Source: a virus
Taxonomy: Duplodnaviria; Heunggongvirae; Uroviricota; Caudoviricetes
Reading direction: 5' to 3' (one strand)
DNA: 48,566 nucleotides
Virus record (IMG/VR): IMGVR_UViG_2636415673_000004
Span: 1-48,566 of that record
Part shown: positions 1,142 through 48,566 of the stretch, piece by piece
Layout of the letters: the number at the start of each line of letters is the position of its first letter
Position numbering within the stretch: the stretch's first letter is position 1
The notes under the pieces: model-generated
Seen by the model: the letters and a program-made list of their open reading frames with translations, nothing else
What the model was told of the DNA's origin: nothing
Database searches by the model: none
Translations under genes and position numbers: made by a program

Positions 1142-1368
1142 AAAATAATCTCGGTGTGAGATGCTTTACGTCTTCCAAGCCCCCTTCCTTGCCGTAAATG
1201 GAAAGATACATCTAATTATAGAATTTATATGTTTTACCCTACGGCAGTGCTGGCCATTCAATATCCTGTGCAGTTGACGTATCAACACGGTTCAGCAATA
1301 CCCGATACTTTTTCCATGCTTCCAGCAATGAGATTTCTTCCTCCGTTGCATATACAGCTCACCTTTTT

Positions 1369-1703: not shown

Positions 1704-2744
1704 TTATTTAGACGCAAGCGTCGCCTCAATTGCAGATAATCTTTGCCTTAATTCTGCGTTTTCTTCTTCCAGTACTGTTATTCTGTCGTCTGACTCTCTG
1801 GCTACCTGAACAAGCAAGCCAGTAACACCAGAATAATCTACTGTGTAATAACGTTCACCTTCTTCACCTTCCGATCCGCTTGCACCGTCCTGATATTTCA
1901 TTGCGGAACCGACAACTTCTGGGATTGCTTCCAGAGCTTCCTGTGCAATGACACCTGCATAGGGCATACCGTTTTCTTTAAGCGTGTATGTATAGCCGTT
2001 CATTTTACGGATGCGGTCGGTTGCATTATCGATCACCTGAATGTTGTCTTTCAGATCCCGGTCGGAATGCTGGTTAAATGCGGTGGCATGACATGCACCA
2101 TTAACGCTTAACATATAGGTGTTATCGGTATTTTTCTGCGCATAGAACATATACGCGCCACCATCAGCACCAACTTCATATACAACCGGACGGGTAGAGT
2201 TACCCCACAAACTAGTAGTAGCGCCAGAATGAGCGGTCCCCTGTGTGTTTAATGTCATGGTTGACCCATGATTGGCATATTTGATTTGTAATGTGTCTGT
2301 GCAGTCAAACTTAATAAGCGCGTTACTTCCCCGCACACCATACGACATGAGACAGTTCCCCATCTTAAGGTAACCATCACTGCCTGGAAAAATTAATGTT
2401 CCGCCGTAAAGATCGCTAAAATCCCAAAAGATACCTTTTGTTCCATTGTGTGTGACAATCCTTGTCATTGTATCTTTTGTACCGTCAATATTTTTTCTGG
2501 TGTACATCTCACTATAAGCGTTTTCGGTTTCTCCTGTCTTATTTGACAAGTGAATCTTACCGCTAAATATAGTTCCAGTGGTCGGCAATGCCTTTTGATC
2601 ATAGATTACATTGCAATAACTATTCCATGTTGTTTTATTGTCTACATATGATTTTGTTGCATAGCTTCCTTGATCAGTTTTTAGTTTACTAACATCGGAT
2701 TTTAGCGTTTTGATGTCATCAGGAATTACTGTTTTTGTAACCAT
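1704..2744 (-). CDS. Tail fibre/tail spike-like protein with C-terminal intramolecular-chaperone (peptidase S74) domain (346 aa)
   Basis: C-terminal DLKDNIQ...GYTYT...AGVIAQE...YYTVDYSGVTGLL block followed by a coiled-coil tail is typical of self-cleaving fibre chaperone domains; GGAG RBS 7 nt upstream. Confidence 0.6.
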   Translation of the reverse strand: MVTKTVIPDDIKTLKSDVSKLKTDQGSYATKSYVDNKTTWNSYCNVIYDQKALPTTGTIFSGKIHLSNKTGETENAYSEMYTRKNIDGTKDTMTRIVTHNGTKGIFWDFSDLYGGTLIFPGSDGYLKMGNCLMSYGVRGSNALIKFDCTDTLQIKYANHGSTMTLNTQGTAHSGATTSLWGNSTRPVVYEVGADGGAYMFYAQKNTDNTYMLSVNGACHATAFNQHSDRDLKDNIQVIDNATDRIRKMNGYTYTLKENGMPYAGVIAQEALEAIPEVVGSAMKYQDGASGSEGEEGERYYTVDYSGVTGLLVQVARESDDRITVLEEENAELRQRLSAIEATLASK

Positions 2745-2756
2745 TGTCTTACTCCA

Positions 2757-3026
2757 TTAAGCCCATGTCCTTACATGCTGATCTGTCGTAATGAAAGGCA
2801 TTAAAGAAGATATGTTTTTACTGCTATCAACAATCCTCATGTTTACGAAAAAACCACCGCGATCAATGCCTGTACATCTTTCGTTTTCTGGCTCCTCGTA
2901 ATCGATAATGCAGCCAATAACATCAACAAGAACCCCGTTTTCTTCTTCAAGACTGAACAGGCCACTGTCATATACAATTGCGTTAAACTGTTCTCTGTTA
3001 TCGAATCGTAATGTTATATCTCGCAT
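2757..3026 (-). CDS. Hypothetical protein (89 aa), translationally coupled to stf; possible fibre accessory/assembly factor
   Basis: ATG overlaps the stf stop as TAATG; no recognisable domain. Confidence 0.4.
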   Translation of the reverse strand: MRDITLRFDNREQFNAIVYDSGLFSLEEENGVLVDVIGCIIDYEEPENERCTGIDRGGFFVNMRIVDSSKNISSLMPFITTDQHVRTWA

Positions 3027-5383
3027 TATACGTATTCCTTAAGCTGCGTATCTGACAATGCTCTGTTCCAGAAACGGAGGTTTTTTATATGACCATTAAG
3101 GTGTCGTAATCCTGTCGTCGTTTGCCCCCCGATACGAATCACGGCTGCTTCACGAATATATTTCCATACTGTTTTTGTTTCAGCGCTTATATGCTTATTT
3201 GCAAATGAGCATGTCATGCCGTCAGCCTTAACCCTGAATCCCATAACGAGATCCCTTACTCCGCATGATTCATATACACGTCGGTTAGCCCCGCCTATAT
3301 CGCAATACGAATAACCGTCCTGACTGATAGTTCCAGAAGAACCAAACCCCATAATAAATGGGCCTCCGGACTGGTGATTTTCTGAATCAATGACACGCGG
3401 TGCAGCATTATGAGAAATAAACCAGTTTTTATGGACTTCCACCATGAACGTAAAAGGCATGGTATACATATTTTTCATCAGCGGAAATTTACATAAATCT
3501 GATGCACGAGTCGCTGGCTCTGTTGTCGTTATGATGAAGGAAGTTGCACAAGCACCATACTCGAATTGCGGGGTGGTTACTTCTATCCAGTCACCTGTTG
3601 CAAAAGCTCCCACAGCTCTGTCGGCTGCAATTTGCAGCTGCGTACCAACCATTCCCCATTCTGGCAGACATTTCAGTGTTGCCTGAAAATATATCCATCC
3701 ACTACCAGGGTCGATTTCAAAGTTTGCTGTTAATAGCTGGGCATTGCCACCAGTAATTTGTAGTTCATGGGTCTGTAATGACAAATAGGCGTCGCAAAGG
3801 AAGGTGTATCCTTCCGAGTTATACCGTTCAAAACGGATACGTGCGCGAACATTGAGATCACTTCTTACCCTGAACGACGCGGTAACATACGGACCTTTAC
3901 TGTACTGATCATCGCCAGTCACATCTATGCCTTTGTTACCAGCAACTGTGCATATATTTCTCCCTGTTGTCGTTCCTGCTATATCGCTTCCTACCGTGAA
4001 ACGTCCATATTTAAACTCAAATTCATCTGTTGATGATGTTACAGATATACCACCGCTTTTATTCCACGCATCAGGATTAAAACTATTTACGAACATGTTT
4101 GTTCGCTGATTCTCTATCAGCAAACCATATTTTTCAAAACGAGGAACGTTATTACCTGCCACGGTAATATGCCCGGACTTATCAATATACGTTGCAGATG
4201 AAGCCCGGCTAAATTGGCATATGCCATTAACTGGCACAGTGATTTCATCGCTGCCGATGGTTATTGTTTTATACCCCGGCGCATACCCTGTTATCGCTTC
4301 CAGAGAATCATTCAAGGGTAGCCAGATATCAGGAAGCGGAGGGACAGAAGCAGGATCAGCGGCATCTTCTGCAATCCGGGCTGCATTCTCTGCTCTTGTT
4401 GCGGCTGACGTTGCTTCTGTCTCGCTGGCTGCTGCTTTTGTTTCGCTCGCCTTTGCGTTAGTTTCACTGGTTTTTGCAGCTTTTTGGCTATTAGCTGCCG
4501 CTGTTGCAGAACCAGCTGCAGCACTCTCGCTTTCGGCTGCTGCATCCTGACTGCTTTTCGCCGCAGTTTCGCTGGCTTTGGCATTCGTTTCGCTGGTCTT
4601 CGCTGCCGTCTGGCTGGACTTTGCGTTAGTTTCACTCGTCTTCGCAGCTTTCTGGCTGTTAGCCGCAGCAGTTGCTGATCCAGCTGCTGAAGTCGCAGAA
4701 CCGGCTGCCGCGCTCTCGCTTTGGGCTGCTGCAACCTGGCTGTTTTTTGCCGCAGTTTCACTGGCTTTGGCATTCGTTTCGCTGGTCTTCGCTGCCGTCT
4801 GGCTGGACTTTGCGTTGGTTTCGCTCGTCTTTGCGGCTGTCTCGCTGTTTTTCGCGTTGGTTTCTGATTTTTTGGCTGCTGTCGCGGAGTTTGCCGATGC
4901 AGTCTGTGAGGTCGCTGCCGCCTGTGCGCTGTTAGCTGCATTCGTTTCTGAGGTTTTCGCCGCGTTCTTCGATGATGCCGCTGCAGTTTCGGATTTCTTT
5001 GCCGCCGCTGCGCTCTGAGAGGCGGCTTCGGCGTTGCGTGCCGCTTCTTCCACCATTTCCTCAAAACGGCGCAATGCCTCCGGCATGACATCATCTTCCG
5101 TCATGGCACCGAGAAAATCATTCAGCGTACCTGGTCTGGAACCTTCATAGACGGTAATGGTCCCGGCATGTGAAGGCGGAAAACCTTCAACCAGCAGGGT
5201 GACGCTGTACTGGCCATACTCAACATCCATGCTGTAACGCCCGGCTTCATCAGGATTTTCAGAGGCCACCGTGTTCACCAGTACCGTGGTGCTGTTACGC
5301 TTTGCCTTCAGTTGAATAGTGCAGTTCTGTATTGGTTTTCCCGCACCATCTTTCAGCACACCTGAGATTTTTACTGCTGCCAT
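3026..5383 (-). CDS. stf: Side tail fibre protein Stf (about 785 aa) with lambda-Stf-like N-terminus, Ala/Ser/Thr tandem repeats and LamG-like C-terminal domain
   Basis: N-terminus MAAVKISGVLKDG... resembles lambda Stf; repeated KTSETNAK units; C-terminus ends in a ...NLRFWNRALSDTQL motif. ATG at 5383 preferred over GTG at 5389. Confidence 0.8.
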   Translation of the reverse strand: MAAVKISGVLKDGAGKPIQNCTIQLKAKRNSTTVLVNTVASENPDEAGRYSMDVEYGQYSVTLLVEGFPPSHAGTITVYEGSRPGTLNDFLGAMTEDDVMPEALRRFEEMVEEAARNAEAASQSAAAAKKSETAAASSKNAAKTSETNAANSAQAAATSQTASANSATAAKKSETNAKNSETAAKTSETNAKSSQTAAKTSETNAKASETAAKNSQVAAAQSESAAAGSATSAAGSATAAANSQKAAKTSETNAKSSQTAAKTSETNAKASETAAKSSQDAAAESESAAAGSATAAANSQKAAKTSETNAKASETKAAASETEATSAATRAENAARIAEDAADPASVPPLPDIWLPLNDSLEAITGYAPGYKTITIGSDEITVPVNGICQFSRASSATYIDKSGHITVAGNNVPRFEKYGLLIENQRTNMFVNSFNPDAWNKSGGISVTSSTDEFEFKYGRFTVGSDIAGTTTGRNICTVAGNKGIDVTGDDQYSKGPYVTASFRVRSDLNVRARIRFERYNSEGYTFLCDAYLSLQTHELQITGGNAQLLTANFEIDPGSGWIYFQATLKCLPEWGMVGTQLQIAADRAVGAFATGDWIEVTTPQFEYGACATSFIITTTEPATRASDLCKFPLMKNMYTMPFTFMVEVHKNWFISHNAAPRVIDSENHQSGGPFIMGFGSSGTISQDGYSYCDIGGANRRVYESCGVRDLVMGFRVKADGMTCSFANKHISAETKTVWKYIREAAVIRIGGQTTTGLRHLNGHIKNLRFWNRALSDTQLKEYV
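4420..4935. repeat. In-frame tandem DNA repeats (about 189-bp period) inside stf
   Basis: The block ccgcagtttc(g/a)ctggctttggcattcgtttcgctggtcttcgctgccgtctggctggactttgcgtt occurs at about 4561 and 4750, with degenerate copies upstream. Confidence 0.7.
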
Positions 5384-5394
5384 ATCCACTCCAC

Positions 5395-5421
5395 AAAAAA
5401 GCCCGCCTGAACCGGCGGGCT
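5395..5421 (-). terminator. Rho-independent terminator downstream of lom
   Basis: Minus-strand AGCCCGCC-GGTTCA-GGCGGGCT followed by TTTTTT. Confidence 0.7.
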
Positions 5422-5447: not shown

Positions 5448-6047
5448 TCAGAATTTATAACCGACACCCACGATGAAACCGTCAGTGCGCCAGTCACCAC
5501 TGCCGGAACCTTCATAAGCAAGGTCAATGGCCACGGATTCGGTCGGGTTAAACTGCACGCCAGCTCCCCACGCCAGAGACGTGTTGCTGTGGCGACCGTC
5601 ATCACTTCCGGTCAGCACATCGTGCGTTTTCCCCTTGTTGTCAGTTACGCGGAGATAATCCCCGGAGAAAGTCGACACACGGCTGTAAGCCATACCCGCC
5701 ATCGCATACGCGCTGAACCATTCATTCACGCGTACAGACGGCCCCGCCATCACGCTGAACCAGCGGTTACGCACGGAATCTTCATGCCAGCGGGTATCGC
5801 TGTAACGGGTAAGCTGGCGATTCTTGTCTCCTGCATAGCTGAATGACGTCACCAGCCCCAGTGTGTCCGTAAACTCATAACGGTATTTCACGTTAATCCC
5901 GTTAAGATCATCGCTGCCGGGAACGTTCGTCGAGGCATGAAGATACCCCGCGCTCAGCGTGGACTGATGTTCAGATGCCCATGCAGGCGCACCGGATACG
6001 GCCAGACAAATGGCTGCGGACAAAATGGCGGCATAAAGTTTACGCAT
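5448..6047 (-). CDS. lom: Lom outer-membrane protein (Ail/Lom family), 199 aa
   Basis: Signal peptide [24 protein letters not shown] plus beta-barrel-like sequence ending GVGYKF; conserved position after J. Confidence 0.85.
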
Positions 6048-6068: not shown

Positions 6069-6094
6069 AAAAAAAAGGCACCATTTCTGGTGCC
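6069..6094 (-). terminator. Rho-independent terminator downstream of J
   Basis: Minus-strand GGCACCA-GAAA-TGGTGCC followed by a T8 run. Confidence 0.65.
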
Positions 6095-6113
6095 CGTATA
6101 TGGGTTATAAAAT

Positions 6114-9100
6114 TCAGCTGATACTGATGCCTGCGGTGGCTTTCTTCATCACCACAACCAGCAAATCGCTGATACTTGCTGTGGGATACCAGTCATTTAC
6201 CAGCCATGCTGACACCGAAAACTCCAGCGTCATGTGACCGTGACCGGCAGGCATATCAATAACGCCACTGTAAATCAGCGTATTATCCAGCGCGGTACGG
6301 TTATAAATTTCAGCACCGTTTTTCCGCACTATCAGACGGCATGAGGAGTAAATATCAGTATGCTCTCTCTCATGTTTAGCGCCGCTGAATGCCACCGCCG
6401 GAATAACAATCTGCCGGTCAAACGGCTGATCGTCATAAACCCTGACGGTAATGGTCCCTGATGGCCACCGTTCCGGTGCACGGGAGTCCCGGGGGAAAGC
6501 TTTGCCCACTGTTTTAACGAGATCGCCTTCAATCTGGTTCGCGGACAGTTTTCCCAGAACCCGACAGTTCTCGTTAATCGTGACGTTGTTGAGCGTCCCG
6601 GAGTTCGCATTCACGTTACCGCTGATATCGGCATTTTTCGCCGTCAGCCGCCCATCCGGTGTCAGGGAAAATGCCGGTGGATTTCCACCACTGGTAATGG
6701 TGGGGGCCGTCAGGCGTTTCAGGAACACGTCGTTCATGAATATCTGATTGCCCTGCGCCACAAACATCGGCGTTTCATTCCCGTTTGCCGGGTCAATAAA
6801 CGCGATACGGTTAGCGGCAACCAGAAACTGGCTCAGTTTGCCTTCCTCCGTGTCCTCCATACTGAGGCCAATACCCGCGACATAATGTTTGCCGTCTTTG
6901 GTCTGCTCAATTTTGACAGCCCACATGGCATTCCATTTATCGTTGGCATCCTTCCACTCTTTCGAAAACTCATCCAGTCTGCTGGCGTTATCCTCCGTCA
7001 GATCGACTTTTTCCAGCAGCTCCTTGCCGAGATGGGATTCGGTTATCTTGCCTTTGAAAAAATCCAGGTAACCTTCCGCATCATCGCTCGCCCGACCGAC
7101 GGACTCCACGAATGCCGATTTGCCAACGGTGTTCACACTGCGGATATAAAAGTAATAATCATGGCCCGGTTTGATATTGATACTGGCGGCTATCCAGTAC
7201 AGCCCCGTGCCAAGGTAGCGGGCTGTGGTTTCAACCTGCCTGATATCGGTAATCCGCGTTTCCGAGAACCAGAACTCAAACTGTACCGTCGGATCATAAA
7301 CCGCAAGATGCGGCGTGGCGGTGATCTGAAAATAGCCCGGCGTCAGCTCAATCCTCGACGGTGCTGCCGGTGCGGCAATCCGGAACGATACCGACGCCGG
7401 ATCGCCCTGCTGCCCCCACGCATTTACCGCCCGGACTGTCAGCCTGTAGTTCCCCAGCGCCAGCTGCGTGAAGCGGTATGTGGTTTCCGCCGTCCGGGCC
7501 GTGCTGACCAGCCGCTCACTGCCGTCATCCGCTGCCACGGTCAGGCGAAGCATAAAGCTCACCCCCTTCACCACCTTCGGCGTATCCCAGCGTGCCAGCA
7601 CCTGATACTCCCCGCTGTCTGCGGTGACTTCGGCAGTCAGGTGCTGCACCGCTGGCGGCGTGACACCATTCACCGTGCCGCTCTGGTCGCCGTCAAAGTG
7701 CGCCCCGTTATCCACGATGGCTTCTTTTTCCGGTACATGCTGCACGGCGGTGATGGCATACGTGCCGTCGTCGTTCTCACGGATACTCACGCAGCGGAAC
7801 AGGCGCTGGCGCAGCGTCGGCAGCTTCAGCCCCCATACGCTGTATTCAGCAACGCCGTCAGGAACACGGCTCACTTTCACCTTCACGCCGTCGGTGACGG
7901 ACTGGACCTCCACGCTGACCGGATTGCCACTTCCGTCAACCAGGCTTATCAGCGTGGTACCGGAGGATGGCAGCGTGATTTCACGGTCGAGCGTCAGCGT
8001 CCGGGTCTGGCTGTTCACAGCCAGCACGCGCCCGCCGATGCTGATCCCCGCATAGTCATCATCGCAGATTTCAATAACATCCCCCGGCACATGGCGAAGC
8101 CCTTCGGCACCCACGCTGAAATCCACGGTCTGCGTCTCCAGCAGCTCCGTTTTAATCAGCCACAGCCCGGCGCGGTGTGCCTGCCCCCGACTGGTACAGC
8201 CAAAGGCATCCATCTTCGTGACGTTACGACCGTAACGGGCAATGGCCTGCGTGTCCTCCACAAGCTCTGTCGCCGTCTCCCAGCCGTTATCCGGGTCAAT
8301 CCAGTTCACCTCAACGGCATTATGACGGTCCTTCAGGGCGCTGAAGCTGTAGCGGAACGGCGCGCCATCATCCGGCATCACCACATTACTGCGGTTATAG
8401 GTCCACACCTTATCCGATGGCCGGTCCTGCACGAACGTCAGCGTCTGCCCGTTCCATACCGGCATACAGCGCATCGCCGAGCAGAAATCACTGAGCACAT
8501 CCCACGCCTTGCGCTGTGTGGTCAGGTACGCATTACAGGCGATGCGCGGCTCCGTGCCGCCAAAGCCGTCCGGCACCGACTGGTCGCAGTACTGGCCGAT
8601 GACATACAGCGCCCATTTATCCACATCCGCCGCACCAAGACGTTTCCCCATGCCGTAGCGCGGATGGATCAGCATATCCCACAGACACCAGGCCATGTTG
8701 TTGCTGTATGCCGGTTTTAACGTTCCGTCCCAGATACCGCTGTATTGTCGCGTCTGCGGGTTATAGTTCGACGGCACCTGCAGAATGCGCCCGCGCAGAT
8801 GATAATTACGACTCACCTGCTGACTGCCGAACTGCTCCGAGTCCACCTGTACGCCAACCAGTGCCGTGTTCGGGTAGCACTGTTTCACATCGATGATTTC
8901 GGTGTATGACGACCAGAGCGTTTTGTTCTGCAGCTGGTCTGTGGTGCTGTCCGGCGTCATCCTGCGCATCCGGATATTAAACGGGCGCGGCGGCAGGCTA
9001 CCCACCACCACCGAGGCCAGATACTGCGAGGTGGTTTTGCCCTTAATGGTGATGTCTTTTTCCGTCACCCAGCCACCGTTACGTTGTATCTGAACCAGCA

Positions 9101-9509
9101 GGCGGACTTCCGACGGATTCCTGTCACCCTTTGAGGTGGTTTCCACCAGTGCCTGCACGCCGAAAGTAAAGCGCAGACGGTCGATGTTTGCCGACGTGAT
9201 GGTGCGGGTGATCGGCATGTCATATTTCACTTCCATACCCAGCACCGTCTCGGAGCCGGAGGATTCAAACCCCTCCGGCGGAGTCTGCTCCTGCTCACCT
9301 GCCCGGAACACCACCGTGACACCGGAGATGTTGGTATTCCCCTCAGTGTCCAGCACCGGCGTACTGTTCAGCAGCACGCTTTTTAATCCATCCACCGGAC
9401 CTTCAACCGGCCCTTCGCTGATGGCATCGATCACACTCAGCAACTGCGTGGACTTCAGGTTGTCCTTCGCTTCGCGCGGGGTATGCCCCTTACTGCTTCC
9501 TTTACCCAT
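6114..9509 (-). CDS. J: Tail tip/host-specificity protein J (1131 aa)
   Basis: Matches lambda gpJ over most of its length as recalled ([21 protein letters not shown]...); C-terminal about 150 aa look divergent. Confidence 0.95.
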
Positions 9510-9569: not shown

Positions 9570-10241
9570 TCAGCGACCAATCACCACAACCTGACCACCG
9601 TCCCCTTCGTCTGCCGTGCTGATCTCCTGAGAAACCACGCGTGACCCCACGCGCATTTCCCCGTACAGAACAGGCAGAACATTGCCCTGGGCAACCATGT
9701 TATCCAGTGAAGAGAAATAGGTGTTCTGCTTACCGTTATCCGTTGTCTGTGTACGGGGAGTTCTGGCTTTCGGTGCCAGCATCTGCGCCACACCACCGAG
9801 CACCATACTGGCACCGAGAGAAAACAGGATGCCGGTCATACCACCGGCCCCAATGGCTGCCCCCCATGCTGCAAGGGTGGCTCCGGCGGTAAAGAATGAT
9901 CCGGCAATGGCGGCAGCCCCCAGGACAATCTGGAATACGCCACCTGACTTGGCCCCGGCGACTCTGGGAACAATATGAATCACAGCGCCATCAGGCAGAG
10001 TCTCATGTAACTGCGCCGTTAACCCGGACGTGCTGACGTCCCGCCCGGCAATCCGTACCTGATACCAGCCGTCGCTCAGTTTCTGACGAAACGCCGGGAG
10101 CTGTGTGACCAGTGCCCGGATGGCTTCAGCCCCCGTTTTCACACGAAGGTCGATGCGGCGACCAAATCGTTGTAAATCCCCGTAAAGGCAGATGCGCGCC
10201 ATGCCCGGTGACGCCAGAGGGAGTGTGTGCGTCGCTGCCAT
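9570..10241 (-). CDS. I: Tail tip assembly protein I (223 aa)
   Basis: MAATHTLPLASPGMARICLYGDLQRF... matches lambda gpI as recalled. Confidence 0.95.
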   Translation of the reverse strand: MAATHTLPLASPGMARICLYGDLQRFGRRIDLRVKTGAEAIRALVTQLPAFRQKLSDGWYQVRIAGRDVSTSGLTAQLHETLPDGAVIHIVPRVAGAKSGGVFQIVLGAAAIAGSFFTAGATLAAWGAAIGAGGMTGILFSLGASMVLGGVAQMLAPKARTPRTQTTDNGKQNTYFSSLDNMVAQGNVLPVLYGEMRVGSRVVSQEISTADEGDGGQVVVIGR

Positions 10242-47342: not shown

Positions 47343-48566
47343 TCATTTCGAGCCTGAACGAGTACAAGTAACAATCGATTCAACTCTCTCCCACCATGCC
47401 TGGTAGGCTTTACGCTGTTCTTCTAGATAATCACTCTTGTCATAAACTTGCCATACACCTGGCAGTTTATGACCGAGCATTATTTCAGCAATATGAGGCG
47501 CAGTAAGATCAGAAAAGTTTGTTCGTGCTGTTCGTCTCAAATCATGAAGAGACCAATGAGGAAATTGATACCCCAAACGCCGCCATGCGTACTGCATTAA
47601 ATTGTAAGGTAGCGACTGCAATGATGTCCGACCAACTGGTTCCCTGCTTCCTTCCTTAGTAAAAAGCATATCGGAACCGTTGTTCATAGAGATAACGTAT
47701 TTTATAAGCTCTTCAACCGGTTCAATAATGGGCCGCTTTAGCGGTTCGCCTGTTATATCCCCTGTCTTATGTCGTTCTGGTGGTACAGTCCATATTTTAT
47801 TAATGAAATCAAAATCGTCCACCTTGGCAGTAATTAGCTCTGAACTACGGCAACCAAAATGCAGCAATAGTTTAATGAAGGCCCGGTATTTAGGAACCAT
47901 TCGAGAACCATCGATCGCAGCATAAAGGATTTTAATTTCATCATGTGTCAGAAACCGTTTCTTCTGACCTTTACGGATATCCATATCTTTACCCGTGATA
48001 TCCGACAGCGGGCGAGTTTCAATGAGCTTTCTCTTATACGCCCAGACATGGGCCTGCTTTGCGTTAATTAGCAATCGGTCTGCTATTGCTGGAGTCTTAG
48101 TGCTAAGAGGCTCCAGGACTTCTAACCAATCATGCAATGTAGCTGCATCGTGAGGGATATTCCCGATTTTAGAGAACAGGTGCAGCTCAAACGAGCGGAG
48201 TATCTGTTCAGAACCTTTTTTATTTTTTACACAATATGCTTCATACCAAGCACGGATCACAGATTCTACCGTCATGGCTTCAGTAGCTTTACGTTTTTCT
48301 GCCAGCTTGACCAATCGTGGATTGCGGTTTGACTCGAGTTCACCACGAAGACGGATAACTTCTTCTCTGGCCTCTTTTAGTCCAGTTGCCGGGTAAGTTC
48401 CGATATCAAGACGCTCACCTTTCCCCGCCCACTGATAACGATATTGGAACACTACGCGACCTTTCGGTGATACTCTAACAGACAGACCATCACGATCGGA
48501 TTTAACCAAAACCTTATCACGTTCCTTTCCAACAACTGAACGCAACCACGCATCAGACAGCGCCAT
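47343..48566 (-). CDS. int: Tyrosine-type phage integrase (407 aa); ATG at the window edge
   Basis: N-terminus MALSDAWLRSVVGKERDKVL...GLSVRVSPKGRVVFQYRY typical of P4-like integrases; C-terminal catalytic region with HDLRRT and HxxG-Y motifs. Confidence 0.85.
   Translation of the reverse strand: MALSDAWLRSVVGKERDKVLVKSDRDGLSVRVSPKGRVVFQYRYQWAGKGERLDIGTYPATGLKEAREEVIRLRGELESNRNPRLVKLAEKRKATEAMTVESVIRAWYEAYCVKNKKGSEQILRSFELHLFSKIGNIPHDAATLHDWLEVLEPLSTKTPAIADRLLINAKQAHVWAYKRKLIETRPLSDITGKDMDIRKGQKKRFLTHDEIKILYAAIDGSRMVPKYRAFIKLLLHFGCRSSELITAKVDDFDFINKIWTVPPERHKTGDITGEPLKRPIIEPVEELIKYVISMNNGSDMLFTKEGSREPVGRTSLQSLPYNLMQYAWRRLGYQFPHWSLHDLRRTARTNFSDLTAPHIAEIMLGHKLPGVWQVYDKSDYLEEQRKAYQAWWERVESIVTCTRSGSK

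Follow-up and report, generated by a model that had tools for sequence, protein, structure and literature searches.

A natural lambda-type J protein with a 1A2-type receptor-binding domain that probably recognises OmpC

The J Locus and Its Neighbours

The window, i.e., the whole stretch of 48,566 nucleotides that was analysed, opens with an ATG and extends exactly to the start codon of the integrase gene (position 48566), and it looks like a lambdoid prophage excised at gene boundaries. The features discussed here are collected in Table 1. The J gene is complete, and its product is a lambda-type tip attachment protein, as given by its domain series and its place in the tail cluster. The Pfam domains follow the lambda order, all above cut-offs, namely PF24801, PF13550, PF24421, PF24489, PF09327, and PF12421 (FNIII-A_GpJ, Phage-tail_3, Ig_J, Ig_J_second, Phage_Tail_Tip, and Ig_GpJ_C, respectively). 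Ig_GpJ_C, the C-terminal receptor-binding domain of gpJ, is found at aa 1001–1131 (E=3e-37). The initial annotation had stated that the J C-terminus sets host range, which fits the finding that the segment diverging from lambda is the gpJ receptor-binding domain. An antisense open frame of 611 aa also lies within J and is most likely a by-product of the coding-strand composition.

Genes I through J are 96% identical to lambda, and lom and then stf follow downstream of J according to Pfam. The lom gene resembles lambda lom in patches only, at about 83% DNA identity, and encodes 199 aa in the window, 434, and phi330 vs. 206 aa in lambda. The stf gene matches lambda stf at its 5′ end only (83% DNA identity), and the encoded side tail fibre carries a long Ala/Ser/Thr-rich repeat (KTSETNAK...). 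Following stf, within the side tail fibre region at 1704–5389 (minus), come an 89-aa ORF (phrog_1361) and the gene of a 346-aa tail fibre protein that has an intramolecular-chaperone domain (Peptidase_S74). Two terminator-like hairpins were found, one after J and one after lom, a number not above the shuffle expectation of 1.3.

Beside the tail-fibre genes lies a Pin/Hin-type serine invertase (Resolvase + HTH_7), together with a 102-nt remnant that matches the 3′ end of lambda tfa at 89% identity. This Pin-like invertase region may be a decayed host-range switch; a search for inverted repeats bounding an invertible segment beside the invertase gave none that was convincing. At the other end of the window, chicken isolates and E. 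coli 2021CK-01784 have a prophage beside yjjG to which the right-hand 10.5 kb are 100% identical. In strain 2021CK-01784, the integrase end abuts yjjG (L004 13067-13453). Adjoining the integrase gene is one for a 1275-aa SIR2-domain protein, a full-length match to the anti-phage defence protein Dsr1 (PADLOC PDLC02183, 2729 bits); its counterpart in the identical 2021CK-01784 prophage is annotated as dsr1.

Table 1. Position, strand, and supporting evidence of the features at the J locus and elsewhere in the window
Feature	Position in the window	Strand	Evidence
J (tip attachment protein / central tail fibre), complete, 1131 aa + stop	6114..9509	minus	ORF list and translation
J trunk, lambda-like, aa 1–964 (hub domains, FNIII/Ig domains, helical shaft, most of the beta-prism fibre)	6618..9509	minus	97.1% aa identity to lambda J
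J transition zone, aa 965–985 (21 aa)	6555..6617	minus	homology to lambda decays here
J receptor-binding domain proper, aa 986–1131 + stop, 1A2-type allele	6114..6554	minus	identity to GpJ 1A2, Pfam, AlphaFold model
Predicted distal loop L1, aa 1004–1017 (14 aa)	6459..6500	minus	between model strands 997–1003 and 1018–1026
Predicted distal hairpin L2, aa 1047–1052 (EREHTD)	6354..6371	minus	alignment
Predicted distal loop L3, aa 1087–1090 (PAGH)	6240..6251	minus	loop in model
Predicted distal loop L4, aa 1103–1115 (13 aa)	6165..6203	minus	loop in model
Antisense open frame within J, 611 aa	6885–8720	plus	
Terminator-like GC hairpin + T-run, just 3′ of the J stop	6076..6095	minus	consensus scan
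lom (Ail/Lom outer-membrane protein), 199 aa, adjoins J	5448..6047	minus	PF06316, E=3e-120
Terminator-like GC hairpin + T-run, directly after lom	5400–5421	minus	consensus scan
Side tail fibre, 787 aa, lambda Stf-like N-terminus, unrelated distal part	3026..5389	minus	PF08400 phage_tail_N, E=7e-67; phrog_1419
Remnant of lambda tfa 3′ end, 102 nt	1249–1350		89% identity
Pin/Hin-type serine invertase	551–1141	plus	Resolvase + HTH_7
SIR2-domain protein, 1275 aa	43333–47160	minus	PADLOC PDLC02183
Integrase	47343–48566		Pfam

The Mosaic Boundary in J

J was compared with lambda J from NC_001416 (1132 aa; P03749). Over the whole length, the two proteins are 90% identical with a single one-residue gap. 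The trunk, aa 1–964, is identical at 936 of 964 residues (97.1%, i.e., 28 differences), and aa 965–980 at 13 of 16, whereas aa 981–1131 match lambda at only 65 of 152 alignment positions (42.8%). This is the pattern that had been read from the sequence at the outset, in which J stays close to lambda gpJ until roughly its last 150 residues. The interval assigned to the divergent part, 6114–6600 (aa ~971–1131), proved accurate, and both strings quoted from it (27 and 10 residues) lie in the J C-terminus; the identity to lambda J across residues 980–1131 is clearly far below 90%.

At the DNA level, a block that is 95.9% identical to lambda extends from window position 10014, inside gene I, to 6564, beyond which the ungapped identity is ~53%. 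Nucleotides 1–2890 of J are 95.7% identical to lambda, and across the transition zone the DNA identity falls from 87% through 70% to 57% in successive 30-nt intervals. The break in lambda identity is sharp and lies at about window 6565–6660, and the homology of the proteins decays between aa 950 and 985. The diverged end of J is nevertheless still homologous to that of lambda, with an alignment score of 296 vs. −47 ± 13 for shuffled sequence. Within the transition, the stretch N7–C22 (alignment numbering) is invariant across the window J, lambda, phi330, and 434. These comparisons indicate that J received the module through recombination within the conserved segment at about aa 965–985, a natural recombination joint. 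The replaced segment runs on past J, where lom and the side tail fibre gene are only patchily lambda-like.

The Receptor-Binding Domain and the 1A2 Allele

Chimeras that switch at residue 964 from lambda gpJ to the C-terminal portion of a natural E. coli gpJ variant were built by Brödel et al. (Nature 2024, PMC11338833), who determined the receptor use of each; the DNA of two of them, 1A2 and A8, is printed in the supplement of that paper. The 1A2 sequence used here was machine-read from the supplementary PDF with dropped and added bases, and a frameshift-tolerant alignment was used. Of the last 215 residues of J, 197 agree with the published GpJ 1A2, 10 are mismatched, and 8 could not be read (197/207 readable); over the last 151 aa, the corresponding numbers are 137, 9, and 5. 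Four differences are credible, R1048K, S1081T, D1106N, and S1129T (the first letter being that of the window J), and these were taken as real because they are frequent natural variants among 29 close homologues. The remaining 5–6 mismatches are ambiguous and adjoin reading errors. On this alignment, the receptor-binding domain of J is the 1A2 allele. The 1A2 chimera leaves the lambda trunk at lambda aa 964, the same place at which the window J leaves lambda; however, the chimera is engineered, whereas the window J is a natural mosaic with a trunk that differs from lambda at 28/964 residues.

A tblastn search of phage genomes with the last 151 aa of J showed that lambdoid J C-termini fall into discrete classes. 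The class of the window's own allele (91–99% identity) includes PhiR55_1, PhiR5_1, 2G7b, VT1-Sakai, JLK-2012, and many long-tailed Stx1a/Stx2a phages. It is followed by a ~64% class (mEp460_4F5, 1H12, and 4A7) and by ~58–61% classes (BP-4795, Turner, and Chlobot), with lambda at 43% and 434 at about 41%. Three other assignments were considered and rejected. The LamB-binding lambda allele does not reach high identity (42.8% over aa 981–1131, 37% in the predicted loops), and neither does the 434-type allele (41.6% by tblastn, with 49% in the core and 22% in the loops). The J of phi330 is not the same allele either, its receptor-binding domain being A8-type and 67% identical over the last 171 aa.

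By alignment, the A8 C-terminus is the same allele as that of phage phi330 J. A8/phi330 (PDB 9wca, 9wcb; PMC12502783) has the same fold and the same OmpC receptor class as the window J allele and is a sister to it, with the A8 domain overall ~60–65% identical to that of the window J and the core 68% identical (63–65% by Foldseek). We note two differences between these sister alleles. Compared with the window J, A8/phi330 has a longer L2 (by 5–6 residues) and a shorter L1 (by 4 residues), and K-12 OmpC is accepted by A8 but not by the 1A2 allele (PMC11338833). The C-terminal domain of 434 J (lambda h434) belongs to the same family and is likewise OmpC-specific; however, it is ~41–49% identical to the domain of the window J, has longer L1 and L2, and is a separate allele. 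Lambda J (P03749; PDB 8xck, and 8xcj with LamB) shares with the window J the trunk, the architecture, the receptor-binding fold, and presumably the opening mechanism (PMC11101478), but the receptor of lambda J is LamB, whereas that of the window J is most likely OmpC.

Predicted Fold and Distal Loops

An AlphaFold2 monomer model of J aa 944–1131, built from a 30-sequence alignment, has a mean pLDDT of 76, i.e., moderate confidence, and is an all-beta beta-sandwich. Its best matches in the PDB are 9wca, 9wcb, 8xck, and 8xcj, with TM about 0.65–0.70. The entry 9wca is the A8 gpJ central fibre in the closed state and 9wcb the open state with OmpC of E. coli EDL933, the latter comprising three OmpC chains and A8 gpJ713; 8xck is the closed lambda fibre and 8xcj the open one with LamB.

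All indels among the window J, lambda, phi330/A8, and 434 fall within the predicted loops L1–L4. Loop L1 is an indel site in the alignment with phi330/A8 and 434, and hairpin L2 is 5–6 residues shorter in the window J than in the A8/phi330 and 434 alleles. The counterpart of L2 is the phi330 hairpin E953–S962, predicted by AlphaFold3 to enter the OmpC barrel (PMC12502783), and the counterpart of L4 is the phi330 hairpin A1015–P1020, predicted by the same method to contact the OmpC rim (PMC12502783). The window J is 68% identical to A8/phi330 in the core and 40% in the loops, and 45% identical to lambda in the core and 37% in the loops.

Polymorphism among 29 close homologues (>=85% identity) clusters at aa 1048–1053, 1090–1092, and 1103–1106 (window 6351–6368, 6234–6242, and 6192–6203, respectively). 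The stretch 1048–1053, in L2, is the most polymorphic of the allele family, with R, K, Q, or G at position 1048; H1090 and H1092 are also polymorphic, and position 1106 is D, N, or G. Such clustering would be expected if the loops track variation of the OmpC surface. Taken with the moderate-confidence model, these observations point to L1–L4 as the putative specificity determinants. It is also plausible, judging from the alignment, that the shorter L2 explains an OmpC-variant preference differing from that of A8.

OmpC Rather Than LamB as the Probable Receptor

Brödel et al. measured gene delivery by 1A2 particles in MG1655 ΔlamB ΔompC supplied with OmpC from a plasmid (PMC11338833). At the top MOI, 76–99% of cells were GFP-positive with 20 of 23 natural OmpC variants, whereas the variants G1, G2, and G40 gave 2% or less. 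G1 is taken to be the K-12 (MG1655) OmpC because its numbers are identical to those of the MG1655-OmpC panel. Wild-type MG1655, which has both LamB and K-12 OmpC, gave 5% with 1A2 particles at MOI 50, and particles with the wild-type lambda gpJ fail (3% or less) in ΔlamB ΔompC cells supplied with OmpC (PMC11338833). G17 is the OmpC of EDL933 according to the title of PDB 9wcb, and 1A2 reached 98% on it (PMC11338833). The main text likewise reports that, of the two variants examined in detail, 1A2 is efficient on EDL933 only. However, in the source data of Extended Data Fig. 2 of that paper, panel C (OmpC-EDL933) and panel B (OmpC-MG1655) give the same 1A2/A8 values. These duplicate values contradict the main text and are probably a copy error in the deposited sheet. 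Because panel C repeats panel B, the support for EDL933 OmpC is drawn from the main text and from G17 in Extended Data Fig. 1. A later preprint from the same group used 1A2 for O157 strains and in the anti-STEC particle EB003 (bioRxiv 10.1101/2025.02.28.640725).

For the sister allele, plaquing of phi330 is lost on the Keio ompC mutant and restored by complementation (PMC12502783). The literature on close phages yielded no direct receptor data for a natural phage with the exact allele: no paper turned up for PhiR55_1, 2G7b is absent by name from the main text of Mathieu et al. 2020, and a large receptor-screen preprint (10.64898/2026.04.02.716166) treats the gpJ of Drexlerviridae rather than lambdoid J. 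As circumstantial evidence from record hosts, the hosts given for sequenced phages with the window J allele are E. coli C or ECOR13 rather than K-12, and MG1655 is given for several phages with other alleles.

Since the near-identical 1A2 domain depends on non-K-12 OmpC without a need for LamB, the earlier proposal of a receptor other than LamB gains support and can be sharpened to OmpC. By analogy with 1A2, J very probably binds OmpC of the non-K-12 type and does not use LamB, provided that the phage itself behaves like the near-identical 1A2 domain.

Of the other readings, continued use of LamB by the diverged domain is the least probable. Many sequences can bind one receptor, and the fold is the same as that of lambda, with a core that is 45% identical. 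However, identity to lambda in the predicted loops is only 37%, and the near-identical domain on a lambda chassis fails on LamB+ MG1655 (5% at MOI 50) and works in ΔlamB cells with a suitable OmpC. It is nearly as improbable that J uses another outer-membrane protein, such as OmpF or FhuA, or that the side tail fibres alone are needed. A small number of point mutations can redirect lambda J to OmpF (as cited in PMC11101478 and PMC13190303), and the prophage has side tail fibre genes of its own, but 1A2 delivery in ΔlamB ΔompC cells tracked which OmpC was supplied while OmpF and FhuA were still present, and OmpC is the receptor of A8/phi330 and of 434, the closest relatives for which a receptor is known. 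That the prophage is defective and J a functionless relic is also very unlikely, even though many E. coli prophages are cryptic and the annotation of the identical prophage in strain 2021CK-01784 includes a few early-region pseudogenes. The J open frame is full-length, and the structural half of the window is ~96% identical over 80–89% of its length to plaque-forming phages such as PhiR11_1, Turner, and 2H10. Among the tail-cluster ORFs upstream of J are ones of 223, 232, 109, and 853 aa, which correspond in length to lambda I, L, M, and H.

More weight, though still as an unlikely reading, belongs to the proposal that J binds OmpC with a spectrum of variants shifted by R1048, S1081, D1106, and S1129 relative to 1A2, so that K-12 OmpC is accepted or that of EDL933 excluded. 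Two of the four differences, R1048 in L2 and D1106 in L4, fall in the predicted receptor-contact hairpins, i.e., those matching the phi330 hairpins predicted to touch OmpC, and therefore the accepted OmpC spectrum could differ. The same two positions, 1048 (R/K/Q/G) and 1106 (D/N/G), are the most polymorphic in the allele family, and A8 and 1A2 already differ in the OmpC variants that they accept (PMC11338833). However, the R/K, D/N, and S/T changes are conservative, and 1A2 tolerates 20/23 diverse OmpC variants. It is rather doubtful that R1048 and D1106 (K and N in 1A2) retune the accepted variants and that the loop polymorphism records an ongoing arms race with the surface loops of OmpC; were this so, the host range conferred by the window J would be measurably different from that of 1A2.

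Proposed Mechanism

In the mechanism proposed here, J is the trimer at the tail tip, the tail module being intact and of lambda type, and its receptor-binding beta-sandwich would most likely dock on a trimeric non-K-12 OmpC, e.g., the EDL933 variant, rather than on LamB. The distal loops would then push into and around the porin barrels; which of them may make contact is suggested by the monomer model together with the published AlphaFold3 description of phi330. In lambda, the spreading of three domains is relayed up the fibre and the tail tip opens (PMC11101478). By analogy with lambda–LamB and A8–OmpC, docking of J would open the tail tip and trigger DNA ejection.

Occurrence and Biological Significance

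At >=95% DNA identity, 53 of the 59 phage records with a match carry the allele, as do 2,331 records of a complete-genome E. coli collection, 830 of the latter at >=99% and several at 100%. A protein search returned Escherichia and Shigella sequences only, mostly partial E. coli proteins, with thousands of members in some clusters. The J allele is already known, abundant, and experimentally characterised, i.e., it is not new. For a genome scan, its value is that of a correct but routine annotation, namely a J with an OmpC-type (1A2-like) receptor-binding domain.

Engineered lambda particles designed for anti-STEC therapy and for gene delivery in the gut already carry this natural module. For the phage itself, the predicted host range comprises strains with a non-K-12-type OmpC, independent of the maltose-regulated LamB, and by this prediction it would probably form no plaques on E. 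coli K-12.
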